From an uncultured Actinomycetota bacterium (GTDB lineage Bacteria > Actinomycetota > Actinomycetes > Propionibacteriales > Nocardioidaceae), in assembly GCA_963781605.1 (NCBI GenBank), contig CAWAGO010000007.1:70597-134596 (forward strand): a stretch of DNA of 64,000 nucleotides, written 5' to 3'. The notes below the pieces were generated by a model. The model saw only the letters and a list, made by a program, of their open reading frames with translations, did no database searches and had not been told where the DNA came from. Positions 18,764-28,173 of the stretch are shown piece by piece. The position numbers and the translations under genes are program-made. Every line of letters begins with the position of its first letter. Within the stretch, counting starts at the first letter, position 1.

Positions 18764-19525
18764 TCAGCGGACGGGGTGGCCGGCGTCGGCCAGCGCGACC
18801 TTGACTGCTCCGACGCTGAGGGTCCCGAAGTGGAACACGGACGCCGCCAACACCGCATCGGCACCGGCGTCCACAGCGGGTGGGAAGTGCTCGGCGGCCC
18901 CGGCTCCCCCCGACGCGATCACCGGTATGTCGACCTCGCGGCGCACTGCGGAGATCAGCGCCAGGTCGAACCCGGCCAGGGTGCCGTCGGCATCCATGGC
19001 GTTGAGCAGGATCTCCCCCGCTCCCAGTTCGGCAGCGCGGACCGTCCAGGCCAGCGCGTCGAGACCGGCCGACTTCCGACCGCCGTGGGTGGTGACCTCG
19101 AAGCCCGAATCGGTGCCCTCGGCCCGGCGAGCGTCGACCGACAGGACGAGAACCTGGTTCCCGAACCGGTCGGCGATTTCGGAGATCAGGTGTTCGCGAT
19201 GGATGGCGGCGGTGTTGACCGCCACCTTGTCGGCTCCTGCGCGCAGCAGGCGGTCGACGTCGTCGACCGATCCGACCCCGCCGCCGACCGTGAGCGGGAT
19301 GAAGACCTCCTCCGCGGTGCGCGAGACGATCTCCATCGTGGTCGCCCGGCCCTGGTGCGACGCGGAGATGTCGAGGAAGGTCAGTTCGTCGGCGCCCTCG
19401 GCGTCGTAGCGACGGGCCAGCTCCACCGGATCGCCGGCATCGCGAAGCCCTTCGAAGTTGACGCCCTTCACGACTCGACCGGCGTCGACATCGAGACAGG
19501 GGATGACCCGGATGGCGAGACTCAT
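18764..19525 (-). CDS. hisF: Imidazole glycerol phosphate synthase cyclase subunit
   Basis: [42 protein letters not shown]. Confidence 0.98.
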
Positions 19526-20256
19526 CGCTCGCCTCGGGTGAGCTCGAGCGCATCGCTCAGGGTGAATCGCCCCTCATACAACGCGGTGCCGGCGATGGCG
19601 CCTTCGACGCCGAGCGGGACCAGCTCCATCAATGCGCGGATGTCGTCAAGCGTCGTGACTCCACCGCTCGCGACGACGGGTCGGTCAGTGGCAGCGCACA
19701 CGTCACGCAGCAGGTCGAGGTTGGGGCCCTCGAGCATGCCGTCCTTGTTGACGTCGGTGACGACGTACCGGGCGCAGCCCTCACCGTCGAGGCGAGCCAG
19801 CACGTCGTAGAGGTCGCCACCGTCGCGGGTCCAGCCTCTCGCGGCCAGGGTGCGACCGCGGACGTCGAGCCCCACGGCGACGCGGTCGCCGAACTCGGCG
19901 ATGGCCGCGGCGCACCATTCGGGGTGCTCCAGCGCGGCGGTGCCGATGTTGACCCGGCGGCAGCCGGTCGCCATCGCTGCGGCCAGCGACTCGTCGTCGC
20001 GAATGCCGCCGCTCATCTCCACGTCGATATCGAGGGTGCCGACGATCCTCGCCTGGAGCTCGCGGTTGTGCCCGCGCCCGAACGCCGCGTCGAGATCGAC
20101 GAGGTGGATCCACTCCGCGCCGGCCTTCTGCCAGCGCAACGCCGCCTCGATCGGGTCGCCGAACCGCTTCTCCGATCCGGCGACACCTTGAACCAGTTGC
20201 ACGGCTTGGCCCCCGGCGATGTCGACGGCGGGCAGGAGCTGTAGGTAGTCGGCCAC
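19522..20256 (-). CDS. priA: Bifunctional HisA/TrpF phosphoribosyl isomerase A
   Basis: [24 protein letters not shown]; no trpF in the adjacent trp cluster; TAGGCT -10 element 6 nt before the GTG. Confidence 0.93.
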
Positions 20257-20617
20257 GAGACAAGCCTAGGAGAGGCTCACTACGGCGCCGCCGGGGAGGT
20301 GGCCGGTCGTGAACGCTGAAGGCGACCGTCGGCCCGGGATTCGCGCAGCAGGGGAAGGTCGCTCTCGCGGCTCGCGGCCACTCTGGTCGTGCCCCGAGAT
20401 GCTGCCCTTTGCCCAGAATGACGCTGCTCGAGACCGATCGAAAGTTTTTGGGCCTTCGAATTTCTCGTGGCCGTTGAGCCGGCCGACCCTGCTCCCGTCC
20501 GTGCGCAGCGAGTTTGGGTCGCACGACGAGCTCGTCGCCGCCGGTGGGTCGATTGCCACCCTCTGGGAGTCGTGGCACGTGAGGGCTGCCGGTGGCGGCC
20601 GAGACGTCGTGCTCCGA

Positions 20618-20947
20618 TCAGGGCAGGTAGCCGGCCGGTGGCCGGTGCGTGCCAACCACAGGAGCCTCGACGCCGCGGCGGATCTCGGTCCTGCAGACGG
20701 GCTGTTCCCAGCCCGACACTGTGTTCCATCCTGCGCGGGCCAGGTAGCAGGGTCGTTCAACGAGGAAGACGGAGCCCGAGCCGCCCGGTTCGGGGGAGTC
20801 GCTCGAGGGTGCCTCGACCGGTTGTGCCTGCGCGCCGATCAGGGGGGCGATGAAGATGGCGGTCACGGCAGCTGCGCCGATCATGCCCGCGATCGCGCTG
20901 GGGTACCACCAGCGATCAGAGTCGGAAGCGATGTTGTAGCGGTTCAT
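20618..20947 (-). CDS. Small secreted or membrane-anchored hypothetical protein (109 aa) with a two-Cys loop
   Basis: AAGGAG SD before ATG 20947; hydrophobic segment ending AQA, S/G/P linker, PCYLARAGWNTVSGWEQPVC. Confidence 0.75.
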   Translation of the reverse strand: MNRYNIASDSDRWWYPSAIAGMIGAAAVTAIFIAPLIGAQAQPVEAPSSDSPEPGGSGSVFLVERPCYLARAGWNTVSGWEQPVCRTEIRRGVEAPVVGTHRPPAGYLP

Positions 20948-21005
20948 GGTGCACTCCTTGGATTCGCGGCCGATCGGCCACTGGTGGGTCAGTTCTCCAG
21001 CACCC

Positions 21006-21049
21006 CGGTACCTGTCGGGCTTTGCCTGGGTATCCATCGGGTATCCGTC
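21006..21049. promoter_or_regulatory. 11-bp-period direct repeats, candidate SARP operator
   Basis: CGGTACCTGTC / GGGCTTTGCCT / GGGTATCCATC / GGGTATCCGTC in exact 11-nt register between the divergent genes. Confidence 0.55.
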
Positions 21050-21087
21050 TCGTTGACGCCGCCTTTCGGCAGGAGGACGGTGGGCGC

Positions 21088-24000
21088 ATGGGCATCACCG
21101 TTCTCGGCCCGGTGACCGTGGACGGCTCGGGACGTCTGGGTCCGCGCGACCGCGTCGTACTCCAGGCTCTGGCCACGCGCCAGGGCCAGCCCGTGAGCTC
21201 CGAAGAACTCGTGGACGCCTTGTGGGGCGACCATCCCCCGGCATCGGCCGCCAAGAACCTGCAGTCCTGCGTGGTGCGGCTCCGTAAGGCCCTGGGGCCT
21301 GACGCGATCGAGACGACCTCCCACGGATACGCCCTGGTGGTGCCGTCGGCTCGCGTCGACGCTCAGGAGTTCGAGACGCAGGTGACGCGCGCCCGCGACC
21401 TGTTGCGGTGGGTGAGAGCGACCGGGTTGCCTTCCTTCTGGAGCAGGCACTCTCGCTTTGGCGGGGTCCCGCGTTCCCCGACCTTTCCGACTGGCCACCC
21501 GCCCGGCGAGAAGCAGGCCGACTCGACGAGCTGCGGCTCGAGGCGCAGGAGATGCAGGTCGATGCGATGTTGCGCAGCGGGCGGCCCCGGGAGGTGCTGG
21601 CGCAGGCGCACGCGATGGTGCGTGCCGCGCCGCTGCGCGAGCGCCGCTGGGAGCTCCTCGTCCTCGCGCAGTACCAGACCGGCGCCCAGGGCGAGGCTCT
21701 GCGTTCCCTGCGTCAGCTCCGTGCCGTCCTGACCCAGGAGCTCGGGGTCGACCCAGCTCCAGAGATGGTCGCCCTGGAGCAGTCGATCCTGAAGCAGGAC
21801 TCCAGCCTCCTTGTCCCTGAGCCCCGCGGGCGGACGGCGCAGTGCCCCTGGCAAGGTCTCAAGGCGTACGACGTAGGTGACGCCGAGCGGTTCTTCGGCC
21901 GCGACCGCGACGTGCAGTCGGGTCTGGACACGCTCGCAACGGCTCTTTTGTAGCCTTCGTCGGCCCCTCCGGCTCCGGCAAGTCCTCGATCATGCGCGCC
22001 GGCGTGCTAGCTGCCCTACGCGACCGCGGACACAGGATCGTGGTGATCACGCCAGGCCGTCGGCCGGTCGAGGCGCTGACCGCGTTACCTGGCAACGCCG
22101 ACGCTCGCACCGTGCTCGCCGTCGACCAGACGGAGGAAGTCTTCGCGCTGTGCGAGGACATCGAGGAACGTCGCGAGTTTCTCGAGCGGCTCGCCCAGGA
22201 AGCGGGTCGGCGGCCGGTCCTCCTGACCCTGCGCAGCGATCGCCTGGCGCAGGTCACCGAGCACGCCGGTTTCAGTCGCCTGGTCGAGCGCGGCCTGCAG
22301 CTCGTCGGCGCCCTGGACGAGGACGCTCTGCGCGCCGCCATCACCGGTCCAGCGCAGCAGGTCGGGCTGATCCTCGAACCTGGCCTCGTGGACCTGCTCG
22401 TCAGGGAGGTGAGCGACGATCCTGGTGCCCTGCCACTGCTATCACACGCCCTGCTCGAGACGTGGCTACGTCGCGAGGGCAACACCTTGACCGTCGACGG
22501 CTACCACGCCTCCGGAGAGATCCACGGTGCAGTGGCGCAGTCCGCCGAGCAGCTCTACGGCCGGGTGGACCCCGAGCAACGACACCTGTTGCGCGACCTC
22601 GTCCTGCGGCTGGTCTCACCCGGCGCCGCTGGTGAAGCGGTCCGCACCCAGGTCCCGCGCCGACTGATCGCGACCGACAGCCACCACGAGCAGCTGATCG
22701 GGATGCTCGTCGACGCGCGGCTGGTGACCAGCGACGAAGGGGTCCTCGAGATCACCCACGAGGCCATGGCCCGCGCCTGGCCCCGACTGCGCGGCTGGCT
22801 CGAGGACGACATCGAGGGCCAACGGATCCGCCACCACCTCAGCGGCGCGGCCGACGCCTGGGACACCCTCGGGCGCCCCGACAGCGAGCTCTACCGCGGT
22901 GTCCGACTGACCCGTGCGCTGGACTGGCAGTCCCGCACCGAGTCCGCACTCACCGACACCGAGCACGACTTCCTCGCCGCGGCCAAGGCGGCCTCCGACG
23001 CGGAGGAGCAGAGCGCCGCCGAGCGAGCACGTGCGCAGGCCCGGCTGATCCGCCGGCTCCGGATCGTGCTCAGCGGCGCCGCCGTGCTCTTGGTCCTAGC
23101 CCTTGTCGCCGGCGGTACCGCAGCCATCCAGTCCGAGCGCGCCGATCGCAACGCCGCGGAGTCTCGCGGCGCCGCGGAAGCCGCCCGCCAAGCTGCGGTC
23201 TCAGCCGATGCACGGCGGGTCGGAACCCGGGCCCAGCTCTCCGACGACATCAGCCTCTCGCTGCTGCTCGCGACCGCGGGTGTCCGTCTGGACGACTCGC
23301 CGGACACCCGCGCCAACCTGCTCGAAGTGCTGGCCAAGCAGCCGCTGCTGGTGCGGTCGGTGCCGCCCGAAGGTGACTACTTGGACATCATGGACGTGAG
23401 TCGCGACGGCCGCTGGATCGCCTCGGCAGACGGTCAGTACCGGATGCACCTCTATGACGCCTCGAACAACCAGCTGCTGCGCAGCTACGACGCGGGCCCA
23501 CCTCCTGAGGACGGGCAGGCGTTCATGATCGGCGGCGTTCAGCCCCGACAGCCGGCAGCTCGCCGTGATCCTGACTGGCCCCTCCACCGAGCCGGTGCGC
23601 TTGCTGGACCCGGACACCATGGAACGGGCAGCGAAGCTCGACTTTCCCGGCGGCAAGACGGTGTGGGGGGTCGACCTTCAGTTCAGCGCCGACGGTCGCC
23701 ACCTGGCCGCAACCGTGCACACCGGGCCGTGTCGAGGAGGAACTTGAGACACCCGGCTACGCACTGGTCTGGGACCTCCGATCTCCATCCAGCCCACCAG
23801 AGCGGGTGCCGACCGGCACCGCCTTTCAGTTGATGGCGCTCAGCCCGGATGGCCGAACCCTGTACACCAACTGGCCTCTGACGGCGTACGACGTGGCGAC
23901 GGGCAAGCGGATCTGGCGACGCGAGGAAGTCGACGTCGTTCCCGAGTCTCGAAGTCAACGCAGAGGGGACCCTGCTCGCACTTCCGGCAGGGTTCAGCCC

Positions 24001-25345
24001 CACGCAGAAGAACGCGCTCCTGGTCAATGCCTCCACTGGGGCGACGGTCCATACGCTGCGTGGACACTGGGCTGCCGACGACATTCGGTTTTCGCACGAC
24101 GGGACGCTCGTGGGGTCGGTCTCCAAGGATGGTGAGCTCATCGTCTGGAACGCCGCCACCGGCCGGCCGCTGGAACGCTGGGACACCTTCGACCCGTGGG
24201 GTGTCGGCTTCAGCCCGGACAATGACCTGGTTTACGGCGGCGGCGCCGACTCGATGCTCCGCACCTGGGACCTGTCCATGGACGGCACCTATCTGCAGCA
24301 GACGGACCCACGGTCGGCGACGCACGAGGAGTTCACCTACGCCGACGTCTCCCCGGACGGTCAACAGGTGGCCTATCGCTGGCTCGACGACAAAGGCACT
24401 GGATGGGTCAGGTTCGTCGACACCCTCACAAGGCGAAGCGACACCAGCGACCCGCGTTCCGGTAAGTGAAGGCGCGTTTCCCATCGGCACCTGGCATCCC
24501 GAGGGTGGACAATACGCCGCATTCTGCAGGGAGTGCGCGGGGTCCGGCATCGTCAGAGTCCTCGATTCCGCTACAGGCCAGCTGATCTCGGAACGGCGCA
24601 TGGCTGGGTGGCGACAATGAGCGTCTGGTCGCTGGCCTACGTCGACGAGGGTCGCAGCCTGCTTGTGGGTGACTCGGACGCGCCGGACCCGGATTGTCGA
24701 TGCCGAGACCCTTCGTACAGCGGGGGGACGCGTTCGACATTGCCCGCGGGCTGCTGCTCCACCCCGGTCGGGGACGGGAGCGCCGCGATGTTCTTCGAAT
24801 TTTCCAGCGACGGCACCTTCGAGCACTGGCGGGTGATCGACGTCAATACGGGAGAGGTCCAGTCCGAGGGGGACCTGGACCTGCGGGTGTATGCGTCCGC
24901 AGCCTCCCCCGACGGTTCGGCCGTGGCCGTCGCCGGAGACACCGGCGAGATCGTTGCGATCGACGTCGGGACCGGAGACGAAGAGCGGCGGTCCATCGGT
25001 CTCGGTGCCGAGGTGCTCTGGCTCAACTACTCCGACGACGGGGACCGGCTCGTCACTGGCGCGGCCGACGGCGGGGTCAGCCTCTGGGATGCCACCACCC
25101 TGGACCTGCTGGGCACCGTGTACCCACCCCACCGCGGGGATCCGGTTCCTGCTGGAGCGCAGTTCATCGGCGACAGCCACGACGTGGCCATCGCGTCGTA
25201 CGACGGCGGCGTCTACCGGTGGGAGACCGACCCCGATCGAACCGTCGACTTCGCCTGCCAGATGGCCGGCCGGAGCCTGACCGAGGACGAGTGGGCGGAG
25301 TTCCTGCCCACCCAGCCCTACCGGGAGGTGTGCCCCGAGCTCTAG
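21088..25345 (+). pseudogene. SARP-family (wHTH+BTAD) - STAND NTPase - TM - WD40 protein of ~1400 aa, interrupted by about 9 single-base frameshifts (real decay or sequence error)
   Basis: AGGAGG SD; VLGPV...LVDALWG..PP.SA.KNLQ..VVRLRK (wHTH); APLRERRWELLVLAQY..G.QGEAL (BTAD); CPWQGLKAY; VGPSGSGKSS at 21962; VLAVDQTEEVF; PGALPLLSHALLETW; HEAMARAWPRL; TM RIVLSGAAVLLVLALVAGG; repeated SPDG/VWD/LWD blades; terminal ACQMAGRSLTEDEWAEFLP. Confidence 0.88.
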
Positions 25346-25555
25346 CCGAAAGCTCGGTTGCGGATCTGGAGCCGGGGACGCATCGATAGTCCCCATGCTG
25401 TCCGCTGCGCCTCGCAAGGGGGCTAAGACCAGCGTCCGCTGAGCTGGGCCTGCTGACTGGACTTCCGTGATGACATAGTGGTGCAGCGGGGCGTCATGGG
25501 CGACAAAGTGAACGACTTCGACCGGGTCGCCGCGCTGCACTTTGACGCGTTCGCA

Positions 25556-25585
25556 TCAGCTGCGGCAGGATTCAGCCGCAGCTGA
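25556..25585. terminator. Perfect 11-bp hairpin between convergent genes
   Basis: TCAGCTGCGGC-AGGATTCA-GCCGCAGCTGA; no clear U-tract. Confidence 0.45.
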
Positions 25586-25809
25586 CTGATAATTGCTAAG
25601 CACTCCCGCGCGACGCTCGAGATGCGTCTACCCGCCTGTCGGTTCCACTCATAGCCGATGAGAGGACGTCCGGCGCAGCGGAACGGGGAGCCCCCGACCT
25701 GCCCTTCCCCATGGCTACCCGGCCTGCTACGGGCTTGGCCTCGCCCAGAAGACCACCGACATTCCGGGCAGCATCAGGACCGGCGCCCCAAGCACGCAGC
25801 GGATCCGGG

Positions 25810-26322
25810 TCATGGGCGGGCCACCACCGGCCAGCGCGCAAAGAGCTCGCGGCCACCGACTGCTAGGAACGCCGCGAGCGTCCAGAGTCCGACCGAGATC
25901 GACAGGTAGTGGGCACCGTCGTACAGGTTGTGATGGTCAGGGTCACCGACCGCGTATGCGATAAAAGGCAGAGCCGCGAACCAGAGCGCAGCGAGGACCG
26001 GAGCCAACCAGATCGGCCGCCGGTGAGCGAGCGCCCACCCTCCGACAAGCGCGCTGAGAAGAAACACCCCGAGGCCCATCGGGGCTCCCAAGAACGGAAC
26101 CGCGAGGAGGGCCGCAAGCCGCCAGAGCTTGGAGCGGCCGGTTAGGCGCGCGCCTCGTACCAGTCCCAGCCCCAGCCCGCCGATCGCGGCACTGACGATG
26201 ATCGCTAGCGTGCCGGACCAGCTGAACGCCTCCGGATAGACGACGATCAGTCGCATCCACAGCCGCGCGAGCGCGCCGACCCAGGCACCCAGCAAGAGCC
26301 CGAGCGTGCCCCAGGCGAGCAC
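25810..26322 (-). CDS. Hypothetical integral membrane protein (about 5-6 TM); upstream SD and ATG separated from it by an in-frame TGA
   Basis: Very hydrophobic 170-aa ORF; GGAGG-ATGATG at 26355 is in frame but stops at TGA 26328-26326. Confidence 0.7.
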   Translation of the reverse strand: MLAWGTLGLLLGAWVGALARLWMRLIVVYPEAFSWSGTLAIIVSAAIGGLGLGLVRGARLTGRSKLWRLAALLAVPFLGAPMGLGVFLLSALVGGWALAHRRPIWLAPVLAALWFAALPFIAYAVGDPDHHNLYDGAHYLSISVGLWTLAAFLAVGGRELFARWPVVARP

Positions 26323-26559
26323 GGGTCAGGCCACCAGCGCTGGCGCGGACATCATGGCCTCCGACGCGATCGTCGAGAAAGTTGAACTCCTGTGTGGAGC
26401 GGGATAGACGCCGAGTGTGAGGACGGCGACCATACGACATTGTCAGCGTCGGCGACGAGTGCAGGCAAGCGATAGGCGTCGGGGCAATGTCAGCACTCAC
26501 ATGCTTGTTGGGAACGTGATCCGCACCGTGCGGAGGTGTCCCATTTCGCCGCTTATGAC

Positions 26560-28032
26560 CTACCCGGCCCATTCCACCCTGGGTCCGCAGTACATCTCCA
26601 CTCCCTTCGGGGCGGTGACCATGATCTCGGCCTCGGACGGGTCGAGCCGGCGAGTGCCGTCCTGGTCGACCAGATAGACCAAGCCATGCGGGGTCTGCCA
26701 GAGGTGGCGGCCTGGCCCGGCCATGCGCGTGCGATAGCCCCCGTGGGTCTTCCAGCGGTGATGTCGTCGTCGGAGTGGCCCAGAGTTGTGGGTGCCAGTC
26801 TGGCCAGGTGGACCGTTCGGATCGTAGGGCACGGCGTGATCGAAGTCGACTCCGGCGCGGGTCGCTGTTCGCGGAGAGAACGGGAAGCAGTCGCCACCAC
26901 TCAGGGTCCACACCTGGTCCTTGACGATCTCGGGGTGCTCGTAGGCGTCGGATCGCGGTCGCAGCCGATGGTCGACCACCGGAGTGACGGTGACATCGGC
27001 GTGACCCAGGAGCTCGGCCAGCTGGGCGACCTGAATCGGCCCCACGCCCTCGACGCGGGCCACGCCACGGCCAGTGCGCAGCGCTTCATCGGTGATATGC
27101 AAAAACAACTGGCCGCGCCCGCGCAGGGACGCCAGCTGGCGAGCCGACATCGTGGCGAGCCGTTTCGTCGTATCTGCCAGGTGTGGCGGCGCCCACGCTG
27201 GTGCCGACGGGTGGCCGCTCTCGTCTCGGGCCCCCTTCTCGTTCTCGTCGTCGGTCGGGGTCACGGTGTGTTCCAACAGCAACTGCAGCAGGTCAGCGGG
27301 GCGCGCCAGCCAGCCCATCGCCTCCGAGCGAAGCTCGTCGCGGTTGTTGTCGTGCCCGCGGGTCGGCAACAAGATGTCGGCCACGTGGTCGACCATCGCG
27401 TCGATCCACGCGGCGTCGCCGGCGGTGACGCGGGCGATGACATGGCGGTAGCCGAACTCATCCGCGCGGGAGAGCGAGACATAGCGTTGGTGACGGGACA
27501 GCTCCCGCTTGTTCGCGTGCGTGACCGGATCGGCCTCGACCACCTTGCCCCGGACGATCTCGAGGACGGTGGCCGGAGCGTGCCGACCGATTGCCCGCGC
27601 CACCGCGCGATCGACGAGCCCGATCCGCTCGGCCGGGAGCTCCCTCGACAGCACCGCCGCCTTGCGTGCCACCCACGGCTCACACTCCCCCGCACGCACT
27701 CTGGCCCAGGTGCGAGGAAGGCGGTGCACCAGATCGAGCGCGTCGGCAATCAACGCCCGGGTGGTCAGTGCATGGGTCTCGCGTGCCATCGCCAGCTCGG
27801 GTATGGCGTACTCGCGCAACTCGGGTGTGCCCTCGCCCCCCGGCGAGACCATCGGGTCGCGCCCGTGGTCGGGGTGGCCGTGGATGACCGCCCACTGAAC
27901 CGCCAACTCAAGCTCGGCCACTTCAGCGAGCCGACGGGCCCGCAACGCCACCTCGGCCGCCGTCAGAAGCCCCCGGGCGGACAGCTCGTCGACCACTCCG
28001 GTCGGACTAGCTTCAAGGGGTGCTGCGGTCAT
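26560..28032 (-). CDS. DUF222-type / HNH endonuclease-signature protein
   Basis: N-terminal helical region (LDLVHRLPRTWARV...WVARKAA) and C-terminal DFDHAVPY...TGTHN.GPLRRRHHRWKTH...LWQTPHG. Confidence 0.85.
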   Translation of the reverse strand: MTAAPLEASPTGVVDELSARGLLTAAEVALRARRLAEVAELELAVQWAVIHGHPDHGRDPMVSPGGEGTPELREYAIPELAMARETHALTTRALIADALDLVHRLPRTWARVRAGECEPWVARKAAVLSRELPAERIGLVDRAVARAIGRHAPATVLEIVRGKVVEADPVTHANKRELSRHQRYVSLSRADEFGYRHVIARVTAGDAAWIDAMVDHVADILLPTRGHDNNRDELRSEAMGWLARPADLLQLLLEHTVTPTDDENEKGARDESGHPSAPAWAPPHLADTTKRLATMSARQLASLRGRGQLFLHITDEALRTGRGVARVEGVGPIQVAQLAELLGHADVTVTPVVDHRLRPRSDAYEHPEIVKDQVWTLSGGDCFPFSPRTATRAGVDFDHAVPYDPNGPPGQTGTHNSGPLRRRHHRWKTHGGYRTRMAGPGRHLWQTPHGLVYLVDQDGTRRLDPSEAEIMVTAPKGVEMYCGPRVEWAG

Positions 28033-28037
28033 GCCTC

Positions 28038-28059
28038 ATTCTATCGAACACCTGTTCGA
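28038..28059 (-). promoter_or_regulatory. LexA (SOS) box directly upstream of a TAGAAT -10 element of a leaderless promoter
   Basis: Perfect TCGAAC-N4-GTTCGA at 28044-28059; minus-strand TAGAAT at 28043-28038, 5 nt before ATG 28032. Confidence 0.85.
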
Positions 28060-28111
28060 CACGCAAGCGCCATCCGCACCCTGTGGAGCCTCCCGAAGTA
28101 GCGCCCGGCGG

Positions 28112-28173
28112 ACTCCGATTCGTCTGCGCCGCTGAGCGTGAAAAAACCCGTTAACCCGCAGACGAATCGGAGT
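28112..28173. repeat. Perfect 17-bp inverted repeat with a 28-nt spacer, overlapping the hisH 3' end
   Basis: ACTCCGATTCGTCTGCG (28112-28128) and CGCAGACGAATCGGAGT (28157-28173). Confidence 0.85.

Follow-up and report, generated by a model that had tools for sequence, protein, structure and literature searches.

A putative one-component transmembrane SARP-STAND-WD40 signalling module, paired with a divergently encoded small exported protein, in Nocardioides and related actinobacteria

What could be the function of a bacterial protein that carries a DNA-binding head and a nucleotide-dependent switch at one end, a pair of propellers at the other and a predicted membrane helix in between, and what is the role of the small exported protein encoded back to back with it? 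This question is raised by a locus in a 64,000-nucleotide stretch of contig CAWAGO010000007.1 (assembly GCA_963781605.1, positions 70,597 to 134,596 of the forward strand) from an uncultured member of the Nocardioidaceae; the whole stretch is referred to here as the window, and positions are counted from its first letter. The source genome is of the Nocardioides type, with approximately 69% G+C and 3.4 Mb in 16 contigs. The regulator gene (21088–25345, plus strand) encodes approximately 1,418 residues once about 11 single-base insertions or deletions (indels) are read through. The small partner gene (20618–20947, minus strand) is an open reading frame (ORF) for 109 residues with an AAGGAG ribosome-binding site. 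Between them lies a divergent control region of 140 bp (20948–21087), in a layout that was found to be kept first in 26 and then in 93 loci. The reading preferred here, with a probability of roughly 60%, is that the two genes form a self-contained one-component transmembrane signalling module in which the small protein is the dedicated output.

A preliminary description of this locus, made from the sequence without database searches, proposed for the large protein (approximately 1,400 residues) a winged helix-turn-helix (wHTH) and a BTAD domain, as in the Streptomyces antibiotic regulatory proteins (SARP), followed by an NTPase of the STAND class (signal transduction ATPases with numerous domains), a helical region, one transmembrane helix and two or more WD40 propellers. 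This order is upheld by the profile hidden Markov models of Pfam together with a frameshift-aware reconstruction. The ORF pieces that carry the regulator domains run in shifting frames along the plus strand of 21088–25345, and protein-to-DNA alignment with three intact orthologues joins them into one protein of 1,418 residues, with about 11 single-base indels and not a single stop codon created by substitution. The rebuilt protein is approximately 85% identical to its closest orthologue in the cytoplasmic part and 61–72% in the C-terminal part, and orthologues of 1,401–1,431 residues are intact in many Nocardioides genomes.

The SARP module (21133–21791, plus strand) consists of an OmpR-type wHTH at approximately 21133–21318 (Trans_reg_C, E 2e-10, 41 bits for a cut-off of 26.2) and a BTAD domain at approximately 21417–21791 (E 4e-34, 118 bits for a cut-off of 22.1). 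Trans_reg_C followed by BTAD at the N terminus is the domain order of the SARP family, and the SARP domains of AfsR and EmbR in the PDB match the module with E 1e-30. The NTPase (21846–22882, plus strand) matches nSTAND1 (PF20703) with E 3e-81 and 274.4 bits, well over the gathering score of 27.1; its Walker A (GPSGSGKSS) and Walker B (DQTEE) motifs are intact in the rebuilt protein and conserved across the alignment, which places it in the nSTAND1 clade. WD40-type propeller matches, also by Pfam, complete the series. The protein is not an AfsR equivalog: the corresponding NCBIfam model (NF053617) gives 150.9 bits, far short of its cut-off of 1,430, and aligns with residues 5–298, the SARP part only, while the NTPase is nSTAND1 instead of NB-ARC and the sensor is made of WD40 repeats instead of tetratricopeptide repeats (TPR).

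As regards the membrane, the DNA-binding and NTPase parts had been placed in the cytoplasm and the propellers outside the cell, a topology that is supported by hydropathy, by the positive-inside rule and by cysteine counts. Hydropathy identifies a single transmembrane helix, IVLSGAAVLLVLALVAGGTAAI, at 23063–23128 on the plus strand (Kyte-Doolittle 2.4), and the helix is conserved in position. Each of 13 aligned proteins, including a 40%-identical paralogue from the same genome, has one such segment with a mean Kyte-Doolittle value of 2.2–2.9 over 19 residues, and no other segment exceeds 1.6. When residues 550–800 of 66 intact relatives were searched, the strongest hydrophobic stretch in that interval was found at residues 657–665, with a median value of 2.56. 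Lysines and arginines near the helix of these relatives average 5.5 in the N-terminal flank versus 2.2 in the C-terminal flank, an excess that amounts to a positive-inside pattern and thus points to an N-in orientation. An even number of cysteines (2, 4 or 6) follows the helix in 63 of the 66 proteins, and the count is even in the cytoplasmic part of 37 of them. Disulfide-bonded exported proteins of Actinobacteria show even cysteine counts, so that the counts found after the helix support the location of the propellers outside the cell. The regulator is, then, predicted from its sequence to be a bitopic membrane protein whose SARP head and NTPase face the cytoplasm and whose propellers face outward. 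This is the arrangement of ToxR-like factors (wHTH inside, one helix, sensor outside), predicted here from hydropathy, positive-inside flanks and cysteine counts.

The extracytoplasmic part (23129–25342, plus strand) comprises a three-helix stalk, two seven-bladed WD40 propellers and a two-helix C-terminal tail. Its fold was modelled on the post-helix part of the closest intact orthologue (L001), which is 61–72% identical to the window protein in this part, using 63 aligned sequences. The AlphaFold2 model (predicted local distance difference test, pLDDT, 93.1; predicted template modelling score, pTM, 0.91) displays the stalk, approximately 56 strands and the two-helix tail; 56 strands correspond to 14 blades, that is, to a predicted tandem of two seven-bladed propellers, in agreement with the two or more that had been proposed. 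Foldseek matches the model, with probability 1.0, to the tandem WD40 propellers of Nostoc 2ymu, Pwp2, Aip1 and Apaf-1, and the nearest solved blades by sequence in the PDB are 2ymu (E 8e-50) and the actinobacterial kinase PkwA (5yzv, E 8e-27). A cysteine pair in the C-terminal tail (ACQMAGRSLTEDEW...VCP) is invariant in the 13 aligned proteins; of the 66 intact relatives, 58 have the tail motif.

The 140 bp between the two start codons hold the elements that would connect the regulator to transcription. The SARP-style 11-bp repeats that the preliminary description had pointed out between the starts are real (21007, 21029 and 21040) and conserved throughout the family. On the plus strand, Box 1 (21007–21012) is the palindromic GGTACC, 46 nt upstream of a TTGAC element, and Boxes 2 and 3 (21029–21045, with starts at 21029 and 21040) form GGTATC-N5-GGTATC in an 11-bp register, 24 and 13 nt upstream of the same element. 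The regulator promoter (21053–21081, plus strand) has its −35, TTGACG, at 21053–21058 and, after a 17-bp spacer, its −10, GACGGT, at 21076–21081. This −10 ends 6 nt ahead of the ATG in the window and 6–7 nt before the start codon in the family profile.

The family profile derives from 93 distinct related regulator genes of Nocardioides, Kribbella, Marmoricola, Oryzobacter, Jiangellaceae, Nitriliruptorales and Acidimicrobiia. TTGAC stands 34–37 nt ahead of the start codon in all 93 loci, and GGTAY is found at offset −13 from it in 74 loci, at −24 in 78 and at −46 in 55, where chance would give approximately 0.2 per offset; in a few loci GGTAY occurs at −35 or −57, and the 11-bp register is always kept. 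Position by position, Boxes 2 and 3 carry 1.4–2.3 bits of information, the −10 of the regulator shows a conserved A and T at +24 and +28 (17 bp past the −35), and a weaker GTTCT element is conserved at −61 to −57. The locus of the 40%-identical paralogue, on contig C8 of the same genome, has the same layout of boxes and promoter as the window. The distance of TTGAC from the start codon, with the −10 directly before it, predicts a leaderless regulator mRNA, and on these grounds we infer that transcription of the regulator starts at its start codon. As to transcripts, the X25 metatranscriptome contains contigs approximately 90% identical to parts of the regulator gene (window 21500–25320), which may indicate that relatives are transcribed or may be DNA carry-over; it yielded no pieces of the small gene, and as evidence it is too weak to place a transcription start.

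SARP and OmpR-type heads recognise direct repeats in phase, which for the SARP family are heptameric and keep an 11-bp register at the target promoters, and the GGTAY boxes are probably the binding sites of the regulator. Across the whole genome, GGTAY-N6-GGTAY is found 9 times, against 14 expected by chance; the complete box-box-TTGAC layout is present in the 3.4 Mb only at the two regulator loci, so that the module seems to be its own regulon. The small gene had been proposed to be under the control of the receptor. The boxes shared between the two genes agree with that proposal, but they are in register with the regulator's own leaderless promoter, so that the evidence for autoregulation is no weaker than that for control of the small gene. 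On the strand of the small gene, a GAGAAC element lies 9 nt from Box 1 in the direction of that gene; by analogy, this would be about the position that a SARP site takes relative to a −10.

The divergent gene had been placed 140 bp away, and the distance between the two start codons is exactly that, with the ORF of 109 residues on the other side. A longer reading of 139 residues, from an ATG at 21037, was rejected: a start at MNRY suits the majority of homologues (34 of 46 clusters), and the additional codons would run across the boxes. The small protein has 46 homologous clusters, with lengths of 102–139 residues and mostly 103–110 (the same 34 clusters). In the small protein itself, a conserved N-terminal tail (MNRYxxxSDSDRWW) leads into a hydrophobic helix, with AQA after it; a linker then connects to a cysteine loop (RPCYLARAGWNT..WEQPVC), and the C terminus is ..YLP. 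Residues Y4, S10, W13, W14, C67/C85, W74 and N75 are invariant. Searches of Pfam, NCBIfam and PADLOC returned no family for this protein. AlphaFold2, with 42 homologues, predicts one long helix (residues 6–39) and leaves the rest at low confidence (pLDDT 52.7). An exported mature peptide of approximately 68 residues had been proposed; the hydrophobic N-terminal segment for export or anchoring is there, but cleavage to a free peptide is in doubt. Because its N-terminal tail is conserved and non-basic and its predicted helix is long, the small protein may remain anchored in the membrane instead of being released.

The preliminary description had also proposed to test whether homologues of the small protein accompany such regulators divergently in other genomes. 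Such pairing holds true of the gene type and not of the protein family: a divergent gene for a protein with an N-terminal hydrophobic segment, at 130–170 nt from start to start, is found in at least 73 of the 93 loci, that of the C8 paralogue included, but the family to which the partner belongs is not fixed. Several of the other 20 loci are visibly frameshifted assemblies of such partner genes. Among the 73 partners, 56 have 170 residues or fewer, 42 have exactly two cysteines past the signal or anchor and 66 have an even cysteine count. The Cys-loop type of the window (C[FY]xxR..W[NH]..PxC) is found with its strict motif in 17 of the 73, with more in degenerate form, and includes the C8 partner; together with a helical type of approximately 80 residues, it makes up the largest single-linkage cluster (34 of 73). 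A 14-member cluster consists of lipoproteins with other short Cys loops or LDFGD repeats, and larger secreted proteins form a further type, some partners being secreted proteins or lipoproteins of 200–470 residues. In the Cys-loop partners, the extreme C-terminal motif [DG][YH]LP is conserved, and the juxtamembrane tail YxLxxDSxRWW is conserved in 16 of the 34 members of their cluster.

The nature of the partner bears directly on its role, for which the preliminary description had left two options, ligand or output. If the first were correct, the released Cys-loop protein would bind the propellers of its own receptor and turn on both genes, in an autoinducing loop for peptide quorum sensing or kin recognition that diversifies like pherotypes. 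Several properties would suit such a pair: the partner is exported and the sensor lies outside, one cluster of boxes is common to both promoters, the partners vary and several copies of the module can occur in a genome, and the partner ectodomain is predicted to be disordered, as expected of a short linear ligand of a propeller. The sensor also evolves much faster than the rest of the protein, with a mean identity of 34% versus 61% for the cytoplasmic part. When sensor and cytoplasmic identities were compared for regulator pairs with the same or with different partner families, however, sensor identity at equal cytoplasmic identity was the same for pairs with related and with unrelated partners, and unrelated partners occur even with regulators whose cytoplasmic parts are approximately 90% identical. 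Sensor divergence is thus independent of the type of partner, and the notion of the partner as ligand is left unsupported. The partners of 200–470 residues, the 10–20% of loci (approximately) that lack such a partner and the conserved N-terminal tail, which suggests that the small protein is anchored, also speak against a receptor-ligand pair, and it is regarded as unlikely. Another option is that the small protein is a co-component, a single-pass protein that pairs with the helix or stalk of the regulator in the manner of ToxS, TcpH or VtrC and stabilises, inhibits or completes the sensor. The tail before its helix, conserved and not basic (Y4, S10, W13 and W14 invariant), the length of the helix itself (approximately 22 residues, long for a signal peptide), the single long helix predicted by AlphaFold2 and the precedent of fast-evolving co-component cassettes (PMC9214523) are in favour of this option. 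Many partners, on the other hand, are lipoproteins or have ordinary cleavable-looking signals, the partner is transcribed divergently instead of being co-transcribed, its model has no fold like that of the lipocalin-like VtrC and ToxS, and some regulators have no partner at all; a co-component is considered no more probable than a ligand, and both are doubtful. A swappable dedicated output, possibly with feedback, fits these sequence comparisons better than a ligand.

It must also be considered whether the protein is a membrane receptor in the first place, and whether it is alive in this strain. As a cytoplasmic sensor of conflict or immunity, it would have a hydrophobic segment that is not a membrane helix, propellers that sense an invader inside the cell and a toxic small protein as its output. 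The nSTAND1 clade was indeed defined in conflict systems (PMC8195603), the sensor part evolves fast, and the module is patchy (full-length copies in 4 of 81 sampled genomes of the order), occurs in up to four copies per genome and is located here in an accessory block within the his operon. This interpretation is nevertheless very improbable in view of the hydropathy of 2.2–2.9 over 19 residues at a conserved position with positive-inside flanks, of the even cysteine counts of 63 of 66 post-helix parts and of the export of the partners; moreover, the PADLOC defence models matched the regulator only through weak P-loop scores (mad8, 28.6 bits; mad3, 25.2 bits). The frame breaks raise the other doubt. 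They fall between 21404 and 24748 on the plus strand (approximately at 21405, 21940, 23533, 23725, 23935, 24434, 24610, 24625, 24686, 24718 and 24745 in the frameshift-aware alignment), and they could mean that the regulator of this strain is a true, recently decayed pseudogene and the module is dead there. In favour of decay, about 11 indels are concentrated in 4.26 kb of regulator while the neighbouring ORFs of 1,550 and 1,207 residues and the C8 paralogue of 1,405 residues stay open, and the ratio of indels to substitutions with respect to a relative approximately 98.5% identical (approximately 3 to 25) would suit neutral decay. Substitution stops are absent, however, and the cytoplasmic part retains approximately 85% identity to orthologues.

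The breaks are, furthermore, not peculiar to the regulator. A hidden Markov model of G+C by codon position, run on the whole genome, finds approximately 159 frameshift-like switches on the same strand with no stop codon nearby, and they are clustered (for example at C8:394–403 kb, which includes a P450 gene, at C5:245 kb and at C4:411–417 kb). The sole glnA1-type glutamine synthetase gene (C16:66900–68340) has three frameshifts and runs in three frames, each piece being perfectly conserved, and the same kind of breaks is found in many related loci from long-read metagenome-assembled genomes. Three unrelated metagenome runs (one from air, one labelled with an organism and one from freshwater sediment) contain contigs with the module at 95–99% identity and with the frame-restoring state at 21405, 21939, 23533, 23731, 23932 and further sites, and a metatranscriptome contig of a relative has no break at 21942. 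When both flanks of the relatives' contigs are compared, only the module is shared at 90% identity or more, so that no background indel rate can be drawn from them. Given that near-identical metagenome DNA is free of the breaks and that the only glnA1 gene has three of its own, patchy consensus errors of the assembly are their most likely cause; a true pseudogene in this strain is a good deal less likely.

The working of the module as a membrane receptor with a dedicated output can be outlined from what the computation provides, namely the domain order, the predicted topology, the fold, the geometry of promoter and boxes and the pairing of the genes. From these we infer the DNA binding, the direction of regulation, the signal, what the partner does and how the switch works across the membrane. 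The regulator would be a single-pass protein with its SARP head and nSTAND1 switch in the cytoplasm and a disulfide-stabilised tandem WD40 propeller outside. A cue at the cell surface would alter the association state of the propellers, upon which the NTPase would drive oligomerisation, as in other STAND proteins, and the clustered SARP heads would bind the three GGTAY boxes phased by 11 bp in the 140-bp region. Two promoters would be controlled in this way, since the −35 (TTGAC) of the regulator's putative leaderless promoter directly adjoins Boxes 2 and 3, and since Box 1 would sit at the distance of a SARP site from a −10-like element on the side of the small gene. The small Cys-loop protein, exported or anchored, would be the dedicated output and may also feed back on the receptor.

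Several observations weigh against this outline. The sensor of a known STAND protein inhibits its NTPase by touching it, something that an intervening membrane would rule out, so that the switching mechanism must differ. A good −10 for the small gene could not be found in the control region, as GAGAAC lacks the usual final T and is weakly conserved in the family profile. The −35 of the regulator is invariant and of consensus sequence, and this promoter may need no activation, in which case the boxes could serve for repression. The boxes of all paralogues are identical in sequence, and cross-talk instead of private signalling is possible. Lastly, the regulator gene is not intact in the assembly of the window.

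In searches of the literature on nSTAND1 or SARP with WD40 and transmembrane, no characterised member of the SARP-nSTAND1-membrane helix-WD40 architecture was found, in agreement with the opinion already expressed in the preliminary description. The nearest characterised regulator is AfsR of Streptomyces coelicolor, a "large SARP" (SARP-NB-ARC/NOD-TPR) whose target is afsS. Both AfsR and the window regulator can be described as NLR-like transcription factors with an N-terminal OmpR-type wHTH and BTAD, a STAND-type NTPase and a repeat sensor, and both systems have direct-repeat boxes in an 11-bp register and a small adjacent gene as dedicated target. In AfsR, a SARP dimer engages the promoter and the binding of ATP to the NOD relieves inhibition (PMC10936776). 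The differences are equally clear: the NTPase of AfsR is NB-ARC and its sensor TPR, whereas the window regulator has nSTAND1 and a double WD40 propeller; AfsR is soluble, whereas the window regulator has a predicted membrane helix and its sensor outside; the AfsR boxes overlap or replace the −35, whereas those of the window lie upstream of an intact TTGAC −35; and AfsS is cytoplasmic, whereas the window partner is exported.

Membrane-bound wHTH factors with small partners are known (ToxR/ToxS, VtrA/VtrC; PMC9214523). ToxR/ToxS, TcpP/TcpH, VtrA/VtrC and CadC of Proteobacteria resemble the window regulator in having an OmpR-type wHTH at a cytoplasmic N terminus, a single membrane helix and a sensor beyond the membrane, and the ToxR-type systems share with the module a small single-pass or exported partner encoded next to the regulator and fast-evolving ectodomains (PMC9214523). 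These proteins belong to another phylum, their sequence relationship to the window regulator is limited to the wHTH, they have neither BTAD nor NTPase, and where the window regulator has propellers of 700 residues they have small sensor domains of alpha/beta or lipocalin type; in addition, their partner is co-transcribed while that of the window is divergent. The ToxR-like/VtrA-VtrC superfamily is defined by a homologous periplasmic domain and a lipocalin-like partner in the same operon, and the window module, with its WD40 ectodomain and a divergent partner modelled as one helix, falls outside it. The nSTAND1 conflict NTPases (Kaur, Burroughs, Iyer, Aravind) are of the same clade, PF20703, often have C-terminal repeat sensors and are patchy and multi-copy, but the described members bear TIR, caspase or trypsin effectors where the window regulator has a SARP head and an extracytoplasmic sensor. 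The closest solved blades belong to PkwA, a Ser/Thr kinase of Thermomonospora curvata, and to Nostoc 2ymu; both illustrate bacterial WD40 sensors on signalling domains, although the output of PkwA is a kinase, 2ymu has none and neither carries a SARP or STAND module. By analogy only, Rgg/SHP and other RRNPP pairs of Firmicutes also have a regulator gene divergent from that of a small exported peptide, with a shared control region. In those pairs, the peptide is taken back into the cell, where a TPR domain in the cytoplasm binds it, and there is neither homology to the window module nor a membrane helix or NTPase. The architecture of the regulator is thus read as joining the SARP-STAND regulators of the AfsR type to the membrane transcription factors of the ToxR type, in a form that is widespread and uncharacterised.

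Public data contain more than 3,300 proteins that are related at E 1e-10 or better, under source names such as "BTAD domain-containing putative transcriptional regulator", "nSTAND1 domain-containing NTPase" and "SARP family activator/WD40 repeat protein". Isolates whose module is intact include Nocardioides astragali CGMCC 4.7327, N. pini STR2 and N. ganghwensis. Tandem arrays of the module (partner-regulator, partner-regulator) are seen at loci L002, L063, L068 and L025/L102, with different partner types and the same box sequence. The second module of the window's own genome (contig C8:80018–84663, locus L026) is intact, with a regulator of 1,405 residues, four GGTAY boxes, TTGAC and a divergent Cys-loop protein of approximately 93 residues (..RPCFMVRANWNDALDGPQPRC). 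In the window, the module sits inside an accessory block (20257–28150) that splits the his operon between priA/hisA (19522–20256) and the upstream his genes, and that also carries a multi-pass membrane protein of 170 residues (25810–26322, minus strand) and a DUF222/HNH gene (26560–28032, minus strand); a his-gene neighbourhood was seen at none of the other module loci. At 20506–20590 (plus strand), a remnant of approximately 80 nt has 81–84% DNA identity to the 3′ end of a gene for an ABC-transporter ATPase (..SEFGSHDELVAAGGSxAxLWxSWH), and the whole gene flanks the module on that same side in 8 of the 93 related loci. Being a neighbour at so few loci, the transporter gene was rejected as a component of the module; its remnant beside the module suggests that the accessory block was transferred from such a context.

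What the module means for these bacteria can be considered at two levels. The more daring one is that it represents an unrecognised class of actinobacterial surface receptors, transmembrane NLR-like (STAND) transcription factors that form private circuits with cognate exported disulfide-loop proteins, which would be expressed from a shared divergent promoter and detected by propellers on the producing cell itself or on one next to it. This is offered as a speculation with the odds against it; if it were true, sensor and partner would diversify rapidly and so provide each strain with "pherotypes" of its own, to sense a quorum or to recognise kin. At the other level, STAND/NLR proteins are seen as sensors that work inside the cell and SARPs as soluble proteins that activate antibiotic clusters, and the predicted topology of this family puts both on a membrane anchor. 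The 2024 review of SARPs distinguishes small, medium, large and SARP-LAL classes and mentions no membrane-spanning or WD40 form, and current classifications thus omit a SARP-nSTAND1-WD40 membrane family. Such a protein would offer a direct route from a cue at the surface to a promoter, with neither kinase nor second messenger, by means of a disulfide-bonded double propeller of 700 residues outside the cell, and it raises the question of how a STAND NTPase is switched by a sensor on the other side of a membrane. The conserved geometry of the loci (putative leaderless promoter, three phased boxes and a partner 140–150 bp away) makes the family amenable to testing in cultured Nocardioides or Kribbella.

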